Assembly (NCBI GenBank): GCA_028279595.1
Contig: JANQNK010000006.1
Location: forward strand, 32,001-96,000
Reading direction: 5' to 3'
Source of the DNA: Thermoplasmatota archaeon
Lineage (GTDB): Archaea > Thermoplasmatota > JAKEGO01
DNA: 64,000 nt
The position numbers and the translations under genes are program-made. Shown here in pieces: positions 2 through 36,943 of this stretch; the first letter of the stretch is position 1, and every line of letters begins with the position of its first letter. The notes beneath the pieces are model-generated. The model searched no databases. It had not been told where the DNA came from and saw only the letters and a list, made by a program, of their open reading frames with translations.

Positions 2-1039
2 ATGAAAGCAGGAATCGTGACCTACGGTGCGTACGTTCCCTCCTTCCGCATAGCCGCGGAGGAGATAGCGGACACCTGGGGAGAGAACGGACCCGCGATA
101 TCGAGGGGCCTTAACGTCAAGGCCAAGTCGGTGCCCGCTCCGGACGAGGACTCCATAACCATATCTGTCGAGGCATCCCGCAACGCATTGAGGCGGCGGG
201 CGATCGACGCTTCGAGGATAGGTTCTGTCTTCGTCGGATCGGAATCCCCGCCCTACGCAGTCAAGCCGAGCGCGACGGTGCTCGCGGCCGCGATCGGGGC
301 GACGCCCGACATGACCGCTGCGGACCTGGAGTTCGCATGCAAGGCCGGTACGGCCGGAATGCAGGCTGCCCTCGGAATGGTCGAGGCGGGAATGGTCGAC
401 TACGGCCTCGTCGTCGGTGCGGACACATCGCAGGGCCGTCCCGGGGACCCGCTCGAGTACACCGCCTCCGCAGGCGGTGCCGCATACATACTCGGTGCGG
501 ACGATCCGATCGCCACGTTCAATGACATCTACTCCTACACGACCGACACGCCGGACTTCTGGAGGAGGGACCTCCAGCCGTATCCGAGCCACGGCGGCCG
601 GTTCACGGGGAGCCCTGCATACTTCAAGCATATCACGGCCACAACGACCACCGTGATGGAGCGCATGGGAACCTCTCCGGAGGACTACAAGTACGCGATT
701 TTCCACCAGCCGAACGGCAAGTTCCCTCTCAGGATCGGAAAGAAGCTCGGCTTCTCCCCGGAACAGGTGGAGACAGGTCTTCTGGTCCCCTTCATCGGGA
801 ACACCTATTCTGGTTCCATGATGCTCGGTCTGACAGCCGTTCTCGATGCCGCGTCCCCAGGCGACAGGATACTCGCGGTCTCGTACGGTTCCGGTGCGGG
901 TTCGGACGCCTTCGACATCACCGTGACCGACTCCATTGAGAAGATGAGCGAAGCCCCGACCACGATGCAGCAGGTCGAGGGGGGGCGGATGATATCGTAC
1001 GGCGTATACGCCAAGTTCAGACGGAAGATCAGGATGTGA
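2..1039 (+). CDS. mvaS: Hydroxymethylglutaryl-CoA synthase (archaeal type)
   Basis: Motifs GSES, DLEFACKAGT (catalytic Cys), FHQPNGKFP, GNTYSG and SYGSGAGSD; first gene of the HMGS-thiolase-DUF35 operon. Confidence 0.95.
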   Translation: MKAGIVTYGAYVPSFRIAAEEIADTWGENGPAISRGLNVKAKSVPAPDEDSITISVEASRNALRRRAIDASRIGSVFVGSESPPYAVKPSATVLAAAIGATPDMTAADLEFACKAGTAGMQAALGMVEAGMVDYGLVVGADTSQGRPGDPLEYTASAGGAAYILGADDPIATFNDIYSYTTDTPDFWRRDLQPYPSHGGRFTGSPAYFKHITATTTTVMERMGTSPEDYKYAIFHQPNGKFPLRIGKKLGFSPEQVETGLLVPFIGNTYSGSMMLGLTAVLDAASPGDRILAVSYGSGAGSDAFDITVTDSIEKMSEAPTTMQQVEGGRMISYGVYAKFRRKIRM

Positions 1040-1043
1040 TCGC

Positions 1044-2210
1044 GTGAGGAAGGTTGCAGTTATCGGGATCGGCATGACGCCCTTCGGGGAGCTGTGGGAC
1101 AGGTCGCTCAGGACCCTCGGGATCGAGGCCGGGCTCAACGCCATGGTGGATGCCGGAATAACGTCCGAGGAGGTCGATGCTCTCTACGTCGGCAACATGT
1201 CCTCGGGACGTTTCACGAACCAGGAGCATATATCGGCGGTCATTGCGGACCACACGGGACTATCCGCGAGGAACCTGCCTGCCATCCGTGTGGAGGCCGG
1301 CGAGGCCTCCGGTGCTGTCGCGTTCAGGGACGCTTACCTCTCTGTCGCCTCCGAGGTCTACGACATCGTCGTGGTCGGAGGGGCCGAGAAGATGACCGAC
1401 GTCAGCGACGCCATGGCCCACGAGATCTTCGCCACCAGCGTCGATCAGCAGTGGGAGGTGTTCCTCGGCGCCACGGTGCCATCGCTCTACGCGATGATGG
1501 CCCGGCGTCACATGCACGAGTACGGGACGACGAAGGAGCAGCTCGCATCCGTCGCAGTGAACGCTCACAAGAACGGATCGAAGAATCCCAACGCGCAGTT
1601 CAAGAACCAGATCTCCGTGGAAGCGGCCGCGAAGGCGGGAATGGTCGCGTCCCCGTTGGGTATGCTCGACTGCGCTCCGATATCCGATGGTGCCGCAGCT
1701 CTCGTGCTCGCACCACTGGACATTGCCAAGAGGATGACCGACCACCCAGTCGTGATAGCGGGCAGCGGTGTCGCCACCGACACCATCAGCCTTCACCACA
1801 GGGAATCGCTCACCACCATGAGATCGACATCCGTTGCCGCGGACCTTGCGTACAGGCGGTCCGGAATGACACCCGAACACGTCGACATCGCGGAGGTGCA
1901 CGACAACTTCACAATATCCGGGATCATGGCGGTCGAGGACCTCGGGTTCGTCGAGAAGGGACAGGGCGGTCCTGCCTTCGAGAGCGGGAAGTTCGACATC
2001 GAGGGCGACCTCCCGGTGAACACGTCCGGTGGTCTCAAGGCACAGGGACAGCCTCTCGGTGCTATCGGCATCGCGCAGGTGGTCGAGGTGACAAGGCAGC
2101 TCCGCGGGGACGCGGGCGACCGCCAGGTCGACTCGCCCCAGGTGGGTCTGACCCAGTGCGTAGGTGGAACAGGCGGTACTTCCGTCGTACATGTCATGAA
2201 GGTGATCTGA
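1044..2210 (+). CDS. Archaeal acetoacetyl-CoA thiolase-family protein with degenerate active site
   Basis: Thiolase fold motifs (GGAEKMTD, DCAPISDGAAA, VNTSGGLKA), but RVEAGEASG replaces EAACASG, HDNF replaces HDCF and GQP replaces GHP; GTG start. Confidence 0.9.
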   Translation: MRKVAVIGIGMTPFGELWDRSLRTLGIEAGLNAMVDAGITSEEVDALYVGNMSSGRFTNQEHISAVIADHTGLSARNLPAIRVEAGEASGAVAFRDAYLSVASEVYDIVVVGGAEKMTDVSDAMAHEIFATSVDQQWEVFLGATVPSLYAMMARRHMHEYGTTKEQLASVAVNAHKNGSKNPNAQFKNQISVEAAAKAGMVASPLGMLDCAPISDGAAALVLAPLDIAKRMTDHPVVIAGSGVATDTISLHHRESLTTMRSTSVAADLAYRRSGMTPEHVDIAEVHDNFTISGIMAVEDLGFVEKGQGGPAFESGKFDIEGDLPVNTSGGLKAQGQPLGAIGIAQVVEVTRQLRGDAGDRQVDSPQVGLTQCVGGTGGTSVVHVMKVI

Positions 2211-2608
2211 TGGGCGTTGCAAGGTTTTGGCGTGAGAACAGGACCAGGTACAATCTGATCGGCAACAGGTGCCCTACGTGCGAGAAGGCCTTCTTCCCGC
2301 CGAGGGAGCTGTGCCCGACCTGTCACAGGCAGAGCATCGGCAAGATGGTGGAGATCCAGTTCTCCGGCAAGGGCAAGATATACAGTTACTCGGACGTCCA
2401 CGACGCCCCGACCGACTTCTCCGACCAGAGGCCCTACATCATGGCCATCGTCGAGCTCGACGAGGGTCCAAGGATCACGGCGCAGATCGTCGACGCGATC
2501 GACGGTGTCGAGATAGGCATGCCTGTCGAGATGGTGTTCCGTAAGATACGCGAGGAGAGCCCGGAGGGCATCATCCACTACGGTTACAAGTTCAAACCGG
2601 CCCTCTAG
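2210..2608 (+). CDS. DUF35 Zn-ribbon/OB-fold protein (scaffold of the thiolase-HMGS complex)
   Basis: ATG overlaps the thiolase stop (TGATG); MGVARFWRE...CPTC...FPPRELCPTC followed by an OB fold; corresponds to the C-terminal 132 aa of the 504-aa track ORF. Confidence 0.93.
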   Translation: MGVARFWRENRTRYNLIGNRCPTCEKAFFPPRELCPTCHRQSIGKMVEIQFSGKGKIYSYSDVHDAPTDFSDQRPYIMAIVELDEGPRITAQIVDAIDGVEIGMPVEMVFRKIREESPEGIIHYGYKFKPAL

Positions 2609-10636: not shown

Positions 10637-12304
<1,668 letters not shown>

Positions 12305-32634: not shown

Positions 32635-34650
32635 TCAATCCTTCAGTTCATCGAGGTCGACGAAATGGTCGAGCGCCTCGGGGTTCGCTAGCGCGTCCCT
32701 GTTCCTCACTTCATTCCCGTGAACCACCTTTCTAACCGCGAGTTCGACCTTCTTCCCCGAGATCGTCCGCGGGATGTCCGGGACCTGGATCACCTTCGCT
32801 GGCACATGCCGGGGCGTGGTGTTGGAACGAATCGTCGTCTTGATCCTCTTGACCAGGTCCTCATCGAGCTCAAGCCCCTCCTTCAAGATAACGAAGAGTA
32901 CCACCCTGGTATCGTCCTCCCAGTCCTGGCCGATGACTATGCTGTCGACCACCTCGTCGACGGTCATCACCTGGCGGTAGATCTCGGCCGTTCCGATGCG
33001 GATGCCTCCGGGATTGAGGGTCGCGTCCGACCTCCCGACCATGACGATCCCATCGTGCTCCGTTATCGTGATGAAGTCGCCGTGTCGCCAGACGTTTGGA
33101 TAGACGTCGAAGTAGGCGCTGTGGTACTTCTCATCGCCCGGGTCGTTCCAGAAGTAGATCGGCTGTGACGGGAACGAGGCGGTGCAGACCAACTCTCCAT
33201 TGACCCCCCTTACGGGATTACCGTCCTCGTCGAACGCATCCACCTTCATCCCCAGGCCTCTGACCTGGAGCTCTCCCGCCCAGACCGGCAGGGTGGGATT
33301 GCCGAGACCGAAGCACGAGATGATATCCGTACCGCCCGCTATCGAGGCGAGGTTGATGTCCTCCTTGATCTCCCTGTACACGAACTGGAAGCTCTCGATG
33401 GAGAGCGGCGACCCGGTGGATGTCATGGTCCTCAACGTTCCCAGCGAGTACTCCTCTCCCGGTCTGAGCCCGGACTTCTCCACTGCGCTGAGGTACCTGG
33501 CGCTGGTCCCGAAGATTGTCATGCCCTCGTCGTCCGCAAGCTGGAACAACCGGTCTGGGCCTGGGAAGAACGGATTCCCGTCGTAGAGTAATAGCGTTGC
33601 ACCTATGGAAAGGGACGACACCAACCAGTTCCACATCATCCATCCGCACGTCGTGAAGTAGAATATCCGGTCCGACGGCTTTAGGTCGGTGTGAAGCCCC
33701 AGCTCCTTCATGTGCTGGAGCAGTGTTCCTCCCGCGCCGTGCACAATGCACTTTGGCACACCGGTCGTGCCGGAGGAGTACATTATGTAGACGGGGTGGT
33801 GGAAGGGAAGCTGGGCGAAATCGATCTCCGGGACCGGTCCGTCCCCGATCAGGTCTTCGAACCCTATGGCCTTCGGGACCGCTCCCAGGTCCAGGTCGGT
33901 GCCGTTGTTCCATGAAAGGAGAGGAACGACCACGACCCTTTCGATCGAGGGTATCTGTTCCATGACGCTCCTCACTCGCTCCAGGGAGTCGAACTCCTTC
34001 CCGTTGTACAGATACCCGTCCGCAGTGAACAGGACCTTCGGTCCGATCTGGCCGAAGCGGTCGAAGACGCCCTTGATACCGAAGTCGGGGGAGCACGAGG
34101 ACCATATCGCCCCTATGCTGGTGGTAGCGAGCATTGCGGCCACGGTCTCTATCATGTTCGGCATGAAACCGGCGACCCTGTCCCCCTCGACCACGCCCTC
34201 CCTCCTCAGGGCGGCCGCGGTCCTTGAGACGAGGTCGAGAAGCTCGCTGTAGGATATCGATCTGCGCTTGCTGGATTCGGCGGTGAATACGAGGGCATCG
34301 ACGTTGCTGGGGTCCCGACCGTCCAGGATCCTTCCACCGAACGTCGTGGGCTTGCCGAGCGGGAACCTGAGAAGGTTCTCGGCGAAGTTGGTCCTGGAGC
34401 CCGAGAACCATCTGGACCTCATCATGTCGTCGCCGTCGGTAAGGACCTCGTCCCATCCCTTCGAACCGAGGATGGCGGTGTACTCCCAAAGGTATTGCCA
34501 GAAATCCGCACGCTCGTTCACGGACCATTCCCACATGGCACCATAGTCCTGGAGGTCCAGGCCCTTGCGGTCGTTTAGCCAGGTTCGGAAATGTGTCATG
34601 TTGGCTTTCCCGACCCGTTCGGCCGACGGCGTCCACAGAGGTCCATCCAT
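32635..34650 (-). CDS. Acetoacetate--CoA ligase (acetoacetyl-CoA synthetase)
   Basis: WSSCSPDFG, YSSGTTGVPKCIVH, FTTCGWMMWNW, GGTDI, GRSDATLNPGGIRIGTAEIY, SGKKVELAV. Confidence 0.95.
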   Translation of the reverse strand: MDGPLWTPSAERVGKANMTHFRTWLNDRKGLDLQDYGAMWEWSVNERADFWQYLWEYTAILGSKGWDEVLTDGDDMMRSRWFSGSRTNFAENLLRFPLGKPTTFGGRILDGRDPSNVDALVFTAESSKRRSISYSELLDLVSRTAAALRREGVVEGDRVAGFMPNMIETVAAMLATTSIGAIWSSCSPDFGIKGVFDRFGQIGPKVLFTADGYLYNGKEFDSLERVRSVMEQIPSIERVVVVPLLSWNNGTDLDLGAVPKAIGFEDLIGDGPVPEIDFAQLPFHHPVYIMYSSGTTGVPKCIVHGAGGTLLQHMKELGLHTDLKPSDRIFYFTTCGWMMWNWLVSSLSIGATLLLYDGNPFFPGPDRLFQLADDEGMTIFGTSARYLSAVEKSGLRPGEEYSLGTLRTMTSTGSPLSIESFQFVYREIKEDINLASIAGGTDIISCFGLGNPTLPVWAGELQVRGLGMKVDAFDEDGNPVRGVNGELVCTASFPSQPIYFWNDPGDEKYHSAYFDVYPNVWRHGDFITITEHDGIVMVGRSDATLNPGGIRIGTAEIYRQVMTVDEVVDSIVIGQDWEDDTRVVLFVILKEGLELDEDLVKRIKTTIRSNTTPRHVPAKVIQVPDIPRTISGKKVELAVRKVVHGNEVRNRDALANPEALDHFVDLDELKD

Positions 34651-34780: not shown

Positions 34781-36943
34781 GTGCGTATGATGGGATGGCA
34801 CTGGATGATGCTAGCATGTATCGTTACACTGTTAACGGTAGGAGCGGCGACGGGCGACACCCTCGTGGTGGACGATGACGAAGGGGACTGGGCCGGGTTC
34901 ACGACCCTGCAGAGCGCGATTTACAATGCCTCCGCAGGGGACACGATCAGGGTCTATGACGGGACATACGGCGAGAACGTCGTCGTGAACGTCAGCGTCT
35001 CGATAGTCGGGAACGTTACCCAGCAGAGCCTGGTACTCGGCGACAGGTCGAGCTGGACGATCCGCGTCGAGGCCGCGGAGACGACCATCGAGGCCCTCAG
35101 GATACGGGGCGGCTCGGCGACGTCTGGATACGCCGCCGTCATAATCGCATCCGCAGATGGCGTGACGATCGCCAATTGTTCCATTTTGGATAACGACGGG
35201 ACCGGGGTCCTCGTCACGGACGTGAACAGCGTGGATATTATCGATTGCGGGATCTACGACACCGATGGACATGGCGTGCTCCTAGACGATGTCACCGACG
35301 CCACACTGAGTGGCGTGGATTTCACCGACTGCAGTCTTTTCATCACAGGGGCCGGTGAATCGAGATACGACACACACAGCATTACAGACTGTACCGTGAA
35401 CGGCGGCACCCTATTCTACAGGGAGAACTCACCTTCGGTGGTGGTTCCGGCAAGCGTGGGCCAGGTCATACTTGCGAAATGCAGCGCGGTCCTGATACGG
35501 GAGCTGAACATCACTGGAAAGGGCAGTGTCGGCATCATGCTCGCCCACTGCGACTTCATACCAGATCTGATCGAGATCGACGGATGCATCCTCGACGGAA
35601 TGATGTACGGCGTCTATCTGCACAAGGTATCCAACGTCACCGTCAAGAACAGCACGATCTCGGACTTCTCCGACACAGGGATAACTGTCAGCTCGGGCTC
35701 AGTCGATGTCCATATCGCGGAGAACGCCATCGATGACGGCCTTTACGGGATCCAGGCGTCCTCGGTGTACGGACTCACGGTCCTGAACTGCACGCTGGAC
35801 GGTAACGTCCAGGCTGGCATCCAGCTCACGTCGGGCTGCGACGGTTCTGAACTTACAAACCTCGTGATAAGGGATTCCTGGATCGGTCTTGCAGTGTCCG
35901 ACTCGGATGACGTATCGGTATCCAACGTCACCTCCGGAGGCAACGGGAGGCTCGGGGCGGAGTTCGACACCTGTGATGGCCTTGTGATCGACAGCAGTCT
36001 ATTCCACAACAACAGCGCTGGGGGGTTGGAGCTGATCGATTGCGATTCGCCGCTGGTCTCCTTCTCCGGGATCTGGGACAACTCGGGCGCTGGGATCGCC
36101 CTTTCCGGGAACGGCGCGTTCATCACCAACGATACCATTGCCGGGAACTCCGGGAACGGGATCGAGATAGACGGCCAGCTCCATGAGGTCAAGTGGTGCG
36201 ACGTCCTGGACAACCAGTACGGGATCTACATTCTGGAGACCGCGTCGAACCTGACGATCAGGATGAACGCCCTGGGTTCGAACGAGGGCTACGGGGTCTA
36301 CTGCGACTCCGACCTCGAGAACATCACCTTCCTGAGGAACAACTTCACCGACAACAATGCTGGATTGGTCCAGGCCTACGACGTGCTGAACCACACTTGG
36401 GATGACGGCCTCCGCGGTAACTGGTGGGACGACCACGAGAGCGTCGACGAGAATGCCGACGGGGTCTGGGACGATCCCTATTCGATCGATGGACCGGGCG
36501 ATGCGGAGGACCGGTACCCTCTCAGGGGCGCGGCCGATGTCCTTCACGTTGCGCTGTTCAGCGACATCGAAGGAGATGCGGTCGAAGGCCAGACCGTACG
36601 AATAATCGTCTCGATAACCGTCGAGGTAGCGAAGAAGGACGCCTCGGTCAGGATATTCCGCGAGGATGTCGTCGTGCATTCCGAGAGCATCGACCTGGTC
36701 AAGGGTAGGAACTTCGTTTACTACGAATGGGAGGCAACGGTAGGAGACCACAACTACCGTGCCGTGGCCGAGGGCAGGACGACGGACGAGGATTCGATAT
36801 CACTCACTGTCATCCCGGCGGACGACAGCGAACCCGAGACCGAGGAGGGTGTGCCCGCGTGGGCACTCGCAGCAACAATGCTCTTCGTATCGGCCCTGGT
36901 GGTCTTCAATCTAAGGCGTTTCTTCCTGCCGAAGAAGGAGTGA
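34781..36943 (+). CDS. Secreted right-handed parallel beta-helix (NosD/CASH) surface protein with C-terminal TM anchor
   Basis: Signal peptide, VVDDD.G.W...AI..AS.GDTI.VY.GTY.E cap, GI.L repeats, GNWWDD...DPY.I, C-terminal TM plus basic tail. Confidence 0.88.
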   Translation: MRMMGWHWMMLACIVTLLTVGAATGDTLVVDDDEGDWAGFTTLQSAIYNASAGDTIRVYDGTYGENVVVNVSVSIVGNVTQQSLVLGDRSSWTIRVEAAETTIEALRIRGGSATSGYAAVIIASADGVTIANCSILDNDGTGVLVTDVNSVDIIDCGIYDTDGHGVLLDDVTDATLSGVDFTDCSLFITGAGESRYDTHSITDCTVNGGTLFYRENSPSVVVPASVGQVILAKCSAVLIRELNITGKGSVGIMLAHCDFIPDLIEIDGCILDGMMYGVYLHKVSNVTVKNSTISDFSDTGITVSSGSVDVHIAENAIDDGLYGIQASSVYGLTVLNCTLDGNVQAGIQLTSGCDGSELTNLVIRDSWIGLAVSDSDDVSVSNVTSGGNGRLGAEFDTCDGLVIDSSLFHNNSAGGLELIDCDSPLVSFSGIWDNSGAGIALSGNGAFITNDTIAGNSGNGIEIDGQLHEVKWCDVLDNQYGIYILETASNLTIRMNALGSNEGYGVYCDSDLENITFLRNNFTDNNAGLVQAYDVLNHTWDDGLRGNWWDDHESVDENADGVWDDPYSIDGPGDAEDRYPLRGAADVLHVALFSDIEGDAVEGQTVRIIVSITVEVAKKDASVRIFREDVVVHSESIDLVKGRNFVYYEWEATVGDHNYRAVAEGRTTDEDSISLTVIPADDSEPETEEGVPAWALAATMLFVSALVVFNLRRFFLPKKE

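Follow-up and report, generated by a model that had tools for sequence, protein, structure and literature searches.

The first three genes of a 64,000-nucleotide (nt) stretch from a Thermoplasmatota archaeon (assembly GCA_028279595.1, contig JANQNK010000006.1, positions 32,001 to 96,000 of the forward strand; hereafter the window) are tightly packed on the + strand and form an operon (2-2608), in which a thiolase-fold gene lies between the genes for 3-hydroxy-3-methylglutaryl-coenzyme A (HMG-CoA) synthase (HMGCS) and a DUF35 protein. HMGCS is separated from the thiolase-fold gene by 4 nt, and the thiolase-fold gene overlaps the DUF35 gene by 1 nt (TGATG). The products, with lengths in amino acids (aa), are as follows.

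2..1039, + strand: HMG-CoA synthase (HMGCS), 345 aa, catalytically intact (TIGR00748, 551 bits vs. cut-off 353)
1044..2210, + strand: Cys-less thiolase-fold protein, 388 aa, GTG start, putative non-catalytic subunit
2210..2608, + strand: DUF35 scaffold protein, 132 aa, rubredoxin-like zinc ribbon plus oligonucleotide/oligosaccharide-binding (OB) fold

The operon copy is the sole HMGCS found in the genome. It matched chain I of the archaeal complex structure 6ESQ with an E-value of 1.2e-142, and its catalytic tetrad Glu81/Cys113/His235/Asn267 is intact, as it is in each of the 100 neighbouring HMGCS genes inspected. The DUF35 protein is free-standing, with just the zf-ChsH2 and OB domains (PF12172 at 5e-10 and PF01796 at 1.7e-20), and its zinc-ribbon cysteines C21, C24, C35, and C38 are invariant in 27 orthologues. 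The original prediction, made from the sequence of this stretch, had described both partners as intact and the operon as tightly coupled, and the E-C-H-N tetrad, the zinc ribbon/OB domains, and the gene spacing bore this out. Immediately outside the window, a gene for an XRE-type helix-turn-helix protein (225 aa, G000:C11:31315-31989) ends ~12 nt upstream of the HMGCS start; its product is 92% identical to the counterpart at the same place in another locus (L118:4272-4949).

Catalytic residues and fold of the thiolase-fold protein

The active-site residues were mapped by phmmer alignment to the thiolase chains of the solved archaeal structures 6ESQ and 7YVY. The 388-aa protein aligned end to end with both, with E-values of 4.6e-111 to 6ESQ_A and 2.7e-103 to the P. 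furiosus thiolase 7YVY. At the nucleophile position, Glu87 replaces Cys (RVEAGEASG vs. RVEAACASG). In the HDCF motif, Asn288 replaces the acid/base Cys (EVHDNF vs. EVHDCF), while His286, which forms the oxyanion hole, and Asp287 are kept. The catalytic His of the GHP motif is replaced by Gln336 (GQPLGA vs. GHALGA/GHPVGA), a residue that also aligned with the corresponding His in the classical thiolase of this genome. In the C-terminal motif (TQCVGGTGG vs. aaNVGGTGG/TQNIGGTG), Cys372 occupies the archaeal Asn position. Judging by the shared T-x-C-x-G-G pattern, Cys372 is likely, but not proven, to be the counterpart of the CxG Cys of classical thiolases; this segment aligned uncleanly by BLASTP and MAFFT against the classical thiolase. 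The alignment confirmed all four substitutions that had been read from the sequence (E87, N288, Q336, and C372). With none of the three catalytic residues left (nucleophilic Cys, HDCF Cys, and GHP His), neither an acetyl-enzyme nor acetoacetyl-CoA can arise by the known mechanism. The earlier claim that this subunit cannot perform the normal condensation therefore holds, as everything required for the acetyl-Cys ping-pong reaction is absent.

The protein contains the Pfam domains Thiolase_N and Thiolase_C_1. It scored 528 bits against the NCBIfam subfamily NF004720 (over the cut-off of 420) and 523.5 bits against the equivalog NF053570 (AcCoTHIOL_METTL), under the cut-off of 600. An AlphaFold2 model (pLDDT 86.6) superposed on the 6ESQ/6ET9 thiolase with a TM score of 0.95-0.96 and a root-mean-square deviation of 1.4-1.6 Å, indicating that the fold is intact. 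The protein thus shares with archaeal acetoacetyl-CoA thiolases the SCP2-type homology and fold and the co-encoding with HMGCS and DUF35, and departs from them in the equivalog score, the nucleophilic Cys, the HDCF Cys, and the GHP His. The gene is orthologous to the one that encodes the acetoacetyl-CoA thiolase in the archaeal thiolase/HMGCS/DUF35 complex. It shows all the marks of a pseudoenzyme: residues essential for catalysis are lost, the gene is under purifying selection, and its genomic partners are conserved. In a complex prediction run with alignments, HMGCS, DUF35, and the thiolase-like protein scored 0.91, and replacing HMGCS with an unrelated protein gave 0.81; this pair of scores is taken as evidence neither for nor against binding.

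Distribution and conservation of the Cys-less state

The same E/N/Q/C pattern recurs in P0004, from a JGI metagenome contig (91% identity), and in P0006, from an NCBI Thermoplasmata metagenome-assembled genome (MAG; 74% identity). These independent assemblies served as a stand-in for an artefact test, and their agreement indicates that the pattern is not an artefact; the assembly error considered in the original prediction is contradicted by these relatives. Among the 120 nearest homologues in a collection of 5.8 billion proteins, just 5 have Cys at position 87, the others having Gly, Asp, Ser, Glu, or Ala. A close orthologue was present in 29 of 40 related genomes of the same phylum, always in the order HMGCS-thiolase-DUF35 (29/29), and the nucleophilic Cys was missing from 20 of these 29.

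Orthologues were assigned to the Cys-bearing group by Cys at position 87. The group comprised 59 sequences, of which 56 read C/H/C/H at positions 87/286/288/336 and the other three deviate at one position, indicating that the substitutions are not due to chance. In a taxonomic survey of 80 named loci from GTDB species genomes, the nucleophilic Cys was kept in all sampled Methanosarcinales, Methanomicrobiales, Methanobacteriales, Methanocellales, Hadesarchaea, Micrarchaeota, and Altiarchaea, as well as in bacteria with the archaeal-type operon. All these Cys-keeping taxa read C/H/C/H, except for one Methanophagales sequence (C/H/S/H). The Cys-less taxa were Thermoplasmata MAGs, Methanomassiliicoccales, and Methanomethylophilaceae.

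A tree was built from 110 HMGCS-linked orthologues, 51 of them Cys-less, with the genome's own paralogue as outgroup. FastTree placed the 51 Cys-less rows in a single clade (support 92). With 15 trait-related columns masked, a quick IQ-TREE free search needed two changes, of which starred branches force just one, and a tree constrained to one clade was 7.2 log-likelihood units better than the free search (approximately unbiased test, p-AU 0.62). The Cys loss is ancient within a large Thermoplasmatota clade and arose once or, at most, twice. The survey of Thermoplasmatota homologues proposed with the original prediction thus showed that the loss is clade-wide, while the exact residues vary. At position 87, the Cys-less clade has Gly in 27 rows, Asp in 16, Glu in 4, and Ser in 4. 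Asn, Ala, Ser, and Asp occur at position 288, where two rows still have Cys, and position 336 is His in 19, Gln in 13, and Arg in 7, besides Phe, Tyr, and Asn. As position 87 is unfixed and positions 288 and 336 drift by lineage, no newly fixed catalytic solution is apparent; the variation has the pattern of an inactivating hit followed by lineage-specific decay of partner residues that had become useless.

Despite this variation, the gene is under strong constraint. Measured against a 91%-identical relative, the ratio of nonsynonymous to synonymous substitution rates (dN/dS) was 0.066 for the thiolase-like gene, 0.059 for HMGCS, and 0.12 for both DUF35 and the neighbouring FtsX-type permease gene; purifying selection on the thiolase-like gene is as strong as on HMGCS. 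At 84 positions the same residue is at least 90% conserved in both the Cys-bearing and the Cys-less groups, including the HD of HDxF (His286-Asp287), the DCxPxSDG loop, NxSGGLK, and GxPxGA. Relaxation in the Cys-less clade affects just 13 of the positions that the Cys-bearing group conserves: C87, C288, and H336, their sequence neighbours A86 and F289, and G41, V83, A132, F145, P146, Y149, H251, and T341. One clade-wide switch, Ser211 to Ala, was found in 96% of the Cys-less rows. Within the same genomes, the ratio of thiolase to HMGCS distances was 1.03 in Cys-bearing lineages and 1.40 in Cys-less lineages. This rise is consistent with a modest relaxation, as would be expected if the catalytic constraint had been lost and the structural constraint kept.

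A separate pattern was observed in Thermoplasmatota families without a classical thiolase. Their HMGCS-linked thiolases (loci L138, L141, L142, and L143, from G020, G030, G023, and G039) keep Cys87 and His336 and read HDAF, with Ala in place of the acid/base Cys of HDCF; a working enzyme there would need another base.

Acetoacetyl-CoA supply and the role of the subunit

Since the subunit lacks the residues for acetyl-Cys condensation, acetoacetyl-CoA must come from elsewhere. The search for other Cys-intact thiolases suggested in the original prediction was successful: the genome encodes three further thiolase-fold proteins whose catalytic residues are intact, one of them a canonical thiolase II, and the window contains an acetoacetate-CoA ligase gene.

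G000 C4:48978-50132: classical thiolase II with NKVCGSG, NEAF, GHP, and CLGGG (TIGR01930, 458 bits)
C4:219095-220243: divergent classical-type thiolase, adjoining a 3-hydroxyacyl-CoA dehydrogenase gene
C4:233083-234222: archaeal-type thiolase with AACGSS, HDCF, GHP, and HNVGG, catalytically intact
window 32635-34650, - strand: acetoacetate-CoA ligase (TIGR01217, 919 bits vs. cut-off 521)

The archaeal-type thiolase on C4 has its own DUF35 gene downstream (pair C4:233083-234595; L006:1468-3043) and genes for a short-chain dehydrogenase/reductase and a hydratase-like protein upstream, a layout that resembles the archaeal fatty-acid synthase module of S. acidocaldarius (bioRxiv 10.1101/2024.07.05.601840). 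The ligase, ~30 kb from the mevalonate operon, represents an ATP-driven, thiolase-independent route to acetoacetyl-CoA. As a general substitute it was rejected: it exceeded the cut-off in just 9 of 41 genomes and was uncorrelated with the Cys-less state. Two further genes, a methylmalonyl-CoA mutase large subunit (window 10637-12304, - strand; PF01642, 739 bits) and an acyl-CoA carboxylase adjoining the classical thiolase on C4, point to an active acyl-CoA metabolism.

Classical thiolase II (TIGR01930) was found in all 21 Cys-less genomes, this one included; 20 were over the cut-off, and the copy in G007 is a contig-end fragment. No other Cys-intact thiolase-fold gene was found in G034 (99% complete) or G009 (94%), where the Cys, NEAF, GHP, and CxG motifs of the classical thiolase were confirmed; by gene inventory, G004 and G015 (99% complete) look the same. 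In all eight examinable genomes that lack a classical thiolase, the HMGCS-linked gene retains Cys87, and the partly decayed Cys-bearing forms CHCN and CHYH occur just in genomes with a classical thiolase. This co-occurrence is consistent with a replacement model. Archaeal thiolase II genes have been inferred to be of bacterial origin (Hoshino & Gaucher, PMC6107057). HMG-CoA reductase was present in 39 of 41 genomes, indicating that the mevalonate pathway is in use across the clade. No PF00368 match turned up in this 86%-complete assembly or in one 63%-complete genome; as the enzyme occurs in the others, including the same family, its absence here is probably an assembly gap.

We therefore consider it likely that the thiolase-like protein is a pseudoenzyme, kept as a non-catalytic structural or CoA-docking partner of HMGCS, while a bacterial-type thiolase elsewhere in the genome performs the chemistry. 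In this model, the bacterial-type thiolase II (C4:48978-50132) would have taken over acetoacetyl-CoA synthesis, after which the archaeal thiolase would have lost its nucleophile. The protein would have been retained as a structural core that HMGCS and DUF35 continue to require. It would form the dimeric core of the complex and one wall of a fused CoA-binding chamber, a hallmark of this tripartite architecture (PMC12960953). It is probably also part of a shared CoA/pantetheine docking site, and the retained pantetheine-loop and pocket motifs suggest that CoA is still docked there. Acetoacetyl-CoA would reach HMGCS by diffusion rather than by channelling, and a further supply may come from the C4 archaeal-type thiolase/DUF35 pair and the acetoacetate-CoA ligase. 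The original prediction had proposed either a scaffold or a new non-covalent chemistry, and an altered entry into the mevalonate pathway. The scaffold/CoA-binding option is the better supported of the two, and new chemistry is not the simplest explanation. An altered entry stands insofar as acetoacetyl-CoA comes from elsewhere; with three Cys-intact thiolases and an acetoacetate-CoA ligase in the genome, it is most simply explained by replacement with a bacterial-type thiolase.

Several points weigh against this account. The assembly of the three proteins, CoA binding by the pocket, and the role of the classical thiolase as feeder are inferred, and retention of the interface and the CoA site is deduced from motifs alone. 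The co-occurrence with classical thiolases carries no statistical weight, because the lineages are related to one another and the trait has one or two origins. Moreover, 13 of the 16 rows with Asp87 also have His336. Together with the near-invariance of His286-Asp287, this pairing could equally mean that some lineages have kept a ligand-directed or catalytic function. A change from Cys to Asp takes two nucleotide changes; if it recurred in unrelated lineages, it would hint at selection for a carboxylate and not at decay alone. Furthermore, Cys372 in the family of this gene has no account under a pseudoenzyme.

Two other roles were each judged unlikely. The first is a ligand-binding regulatory subunit that senses or holds acyl-CoA or CoA and tunes HMGCS without being needed for assembly. 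The pantetheine-loop motif DC(S/A)PxSDG, the HD of HDxF, and the pocket-lining loops are retained, the near-universal Ser211 to Ala switch sits in the pantetheine loop, and a gene for an XRE-type regulator lies directly upstream of the operon. However, this role overlaps with scaffolding and CoA docking and is inseparable from them by sequence, and the same motifs may be purely structural. The second is an enzyme with a re-arranged active site that still performs thioester chemistry (condensation, thiolysis, or acyl transfer), with Glu87 as base, Cys372 as thiol, and His286 in the oxyanion hole, or with an Asp87-His336 pair in relatives. A carboxylate occupies position 87 in 20 of the 51 Cys-less rows, and the Asp/His pairing, the nearly invariant His286-Asp287, and purifying selection as strong as on HMGCS all fit such a site. 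In addition, all known members of the family (P0001, P0004, P0005, and P0006; 74-100% identity) have Cys372, which none of the other lineages examined shares. Nevertheless, the conservation of Cys372 is little informative at 74-91% identity and a dN/dS of 0.07, and the next relative, G002 of the same order, has Asn. More than half of the clade has Gly87, and most of those rows are non-His at position 336; as the clade is mostly Gly87, re-arranged chemistry cannot explain the clade-wide retention of the gene. Thiolases have a single CoA tunnel, so that a non-covalent two-substrate Claisen condensation would be sterically hard, a point of general thiolase enzymology that also speaks against a re-arranged site.

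It is very unlikely that a dead subunit regained chemistry, with Glu87/Cys372/His286 forming a constellation like the HMGCS triad and the complex again making or processing acetoacetyl-CoA. We consider still more improbable an Ltp2/Sal-type retro-aldolase or hydratase partner, or a PhlC/MucB-type acyltransferase, acting on a substrate other than acetyl-CoA. The combination of a thiolase fold with a DUF35 partner is indeed seen in Ltp2-ChsH2, Sal-Shy, PhlABC, and MucABC, although all of these were weaker structure matches. By sequence, the protein is far closer to the mevalonate-pathway thiolase (E-value 4.6e-111) than to Ltp2 (1.3e-36) or PhlC (5.9e-33), its DUF35 partner is free-standing, and its neighbour is a bona fide HMGCS. 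The aldolase was rejected on its residues: Ltp2 uses paired Tyr residues and Sal uses Tyr302/Cys304 (PMC12329534), while the protein here has His286, Asn288, and Gln336, and its DUF35 is not fused to a hydratase. The Ltp2 comparison drawn in the original prediction was accordingly not supported. The acyltransferase was likewise rejected, since PhlC/MucB keep the nucleophilic Cys, have lost HDxF, and pair with an HMGS-like subunit without E-C-H-N (PMC12960953), the reverse of the situation here. Finally, a sequencing or assembly artefact or a decaying pseudogene can practically be dismissed, given the same pattern in independent assemblies, the open frame, the dN/dS of 0.066, and a trait shared by the whole clade.

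Further open reading frames noted in the window are as follows.

34781-36943, + strand: NosD/right-handed beta-helix protein, 720 aa
55037-59626, + strand: NosD/right-handed beta-helix protein, 1529 aa
59845-64000, + strand: open-ended open reading frame of at least 1385 aa, no Pfam match

Significance and comparison with known systems

In the textbook account, the thiolase/HMGCS/DUF35 complex lets archaea drive the endergonic thiolase reaction forward, because the acetoacetyl-CoA formed is channelled into HMGCS. One large Thermoplasmatota clade, which includes the gut methanogens Methanomassiliicoccales/Methanomethylophilaceae, keeps the genes of this complex with a thiolase subunit that cannot work. 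If the subunit is indeed a retained pseudoenzyme, entry into the mevalonate pathway in this clade would proceed via a bacterial-type thiolase II, without the known channel. HMGCS would then appear to depend on its partner for more than substrate supply, and the structural/CoA-docking role would be open to direct testing. Literature searches returned no paper describing a Cys-less or pseudo-thiolase subunit in archaeal mevalonate operons; the nearest remark is that many 'other AACT homologs' are without the catalytic CH motif (PMC6107057). The Cys-less members carry the JGI name 'acetyl-CoA C-acetyltransferase'; many database entries are thus wrong, and metabolic reconstructions are misled.

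The closest known system is the thiolase/HMGCS/DUF35 complex of Methanothermococcus thermolithotrophicus (PDB 6ESQ/6ET9), reportedly described by Vogeli et al. in PNAS in 2018. Its thiolase subunit is an orthologue with 48% identity, encoded in the same three-gene set with intact HMGCS and DUF35, and most of the loop motifs around the active site are shared. In contrast, its nucleophilic Cys, HDCF Cys, and GHP His are Glu, Asn, and Gln here. Another archaeal relative, the SCP2-type thiolase-like protein ST0096 from Sulfolobus tokodaii (PDB 4YZO; E-value 5.4e-56), also has a non-Cys residue (Ser) at the nucleophile position and reads HDMA, but keeps the GHP His. We know of no assigned or published function for ST0096; its structure provides a solved reference for Cys-less members of the thiolase fold.

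Ltp2-ChsH2(DUF35) (6OK1) and Sal-Shy(DUF35) (9MYR) similarly pair a thiolase fold without the nucleophilic Cys with a DUF35 domain (PMC12329534). They differ from the present case in their Tyr/Tyr or Tyr/Cys pairs, in having DUF35 as the C-terminal domain of a (MaoC-type) hydratase, and in their far more distant sequence. The PhlABC/MucABC (SmaATase) systems and the P. fluorescens ACAT/HMGS-DUF35 complex share the tripartite architecture and the retention of one dead thiolase-fold subunit (PMC12960953). In these systems, however, activity lies with the ACAT-like subunit and the HMGS-like one is dead, whereas here HMGCS is the intact member, the ACAT-like subunit is the dead one, and the setting is still primary metabolism. 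The present case is therefore a mirror image of PhlABC/MucABC, in which it was the HMGS-like subunit that died.

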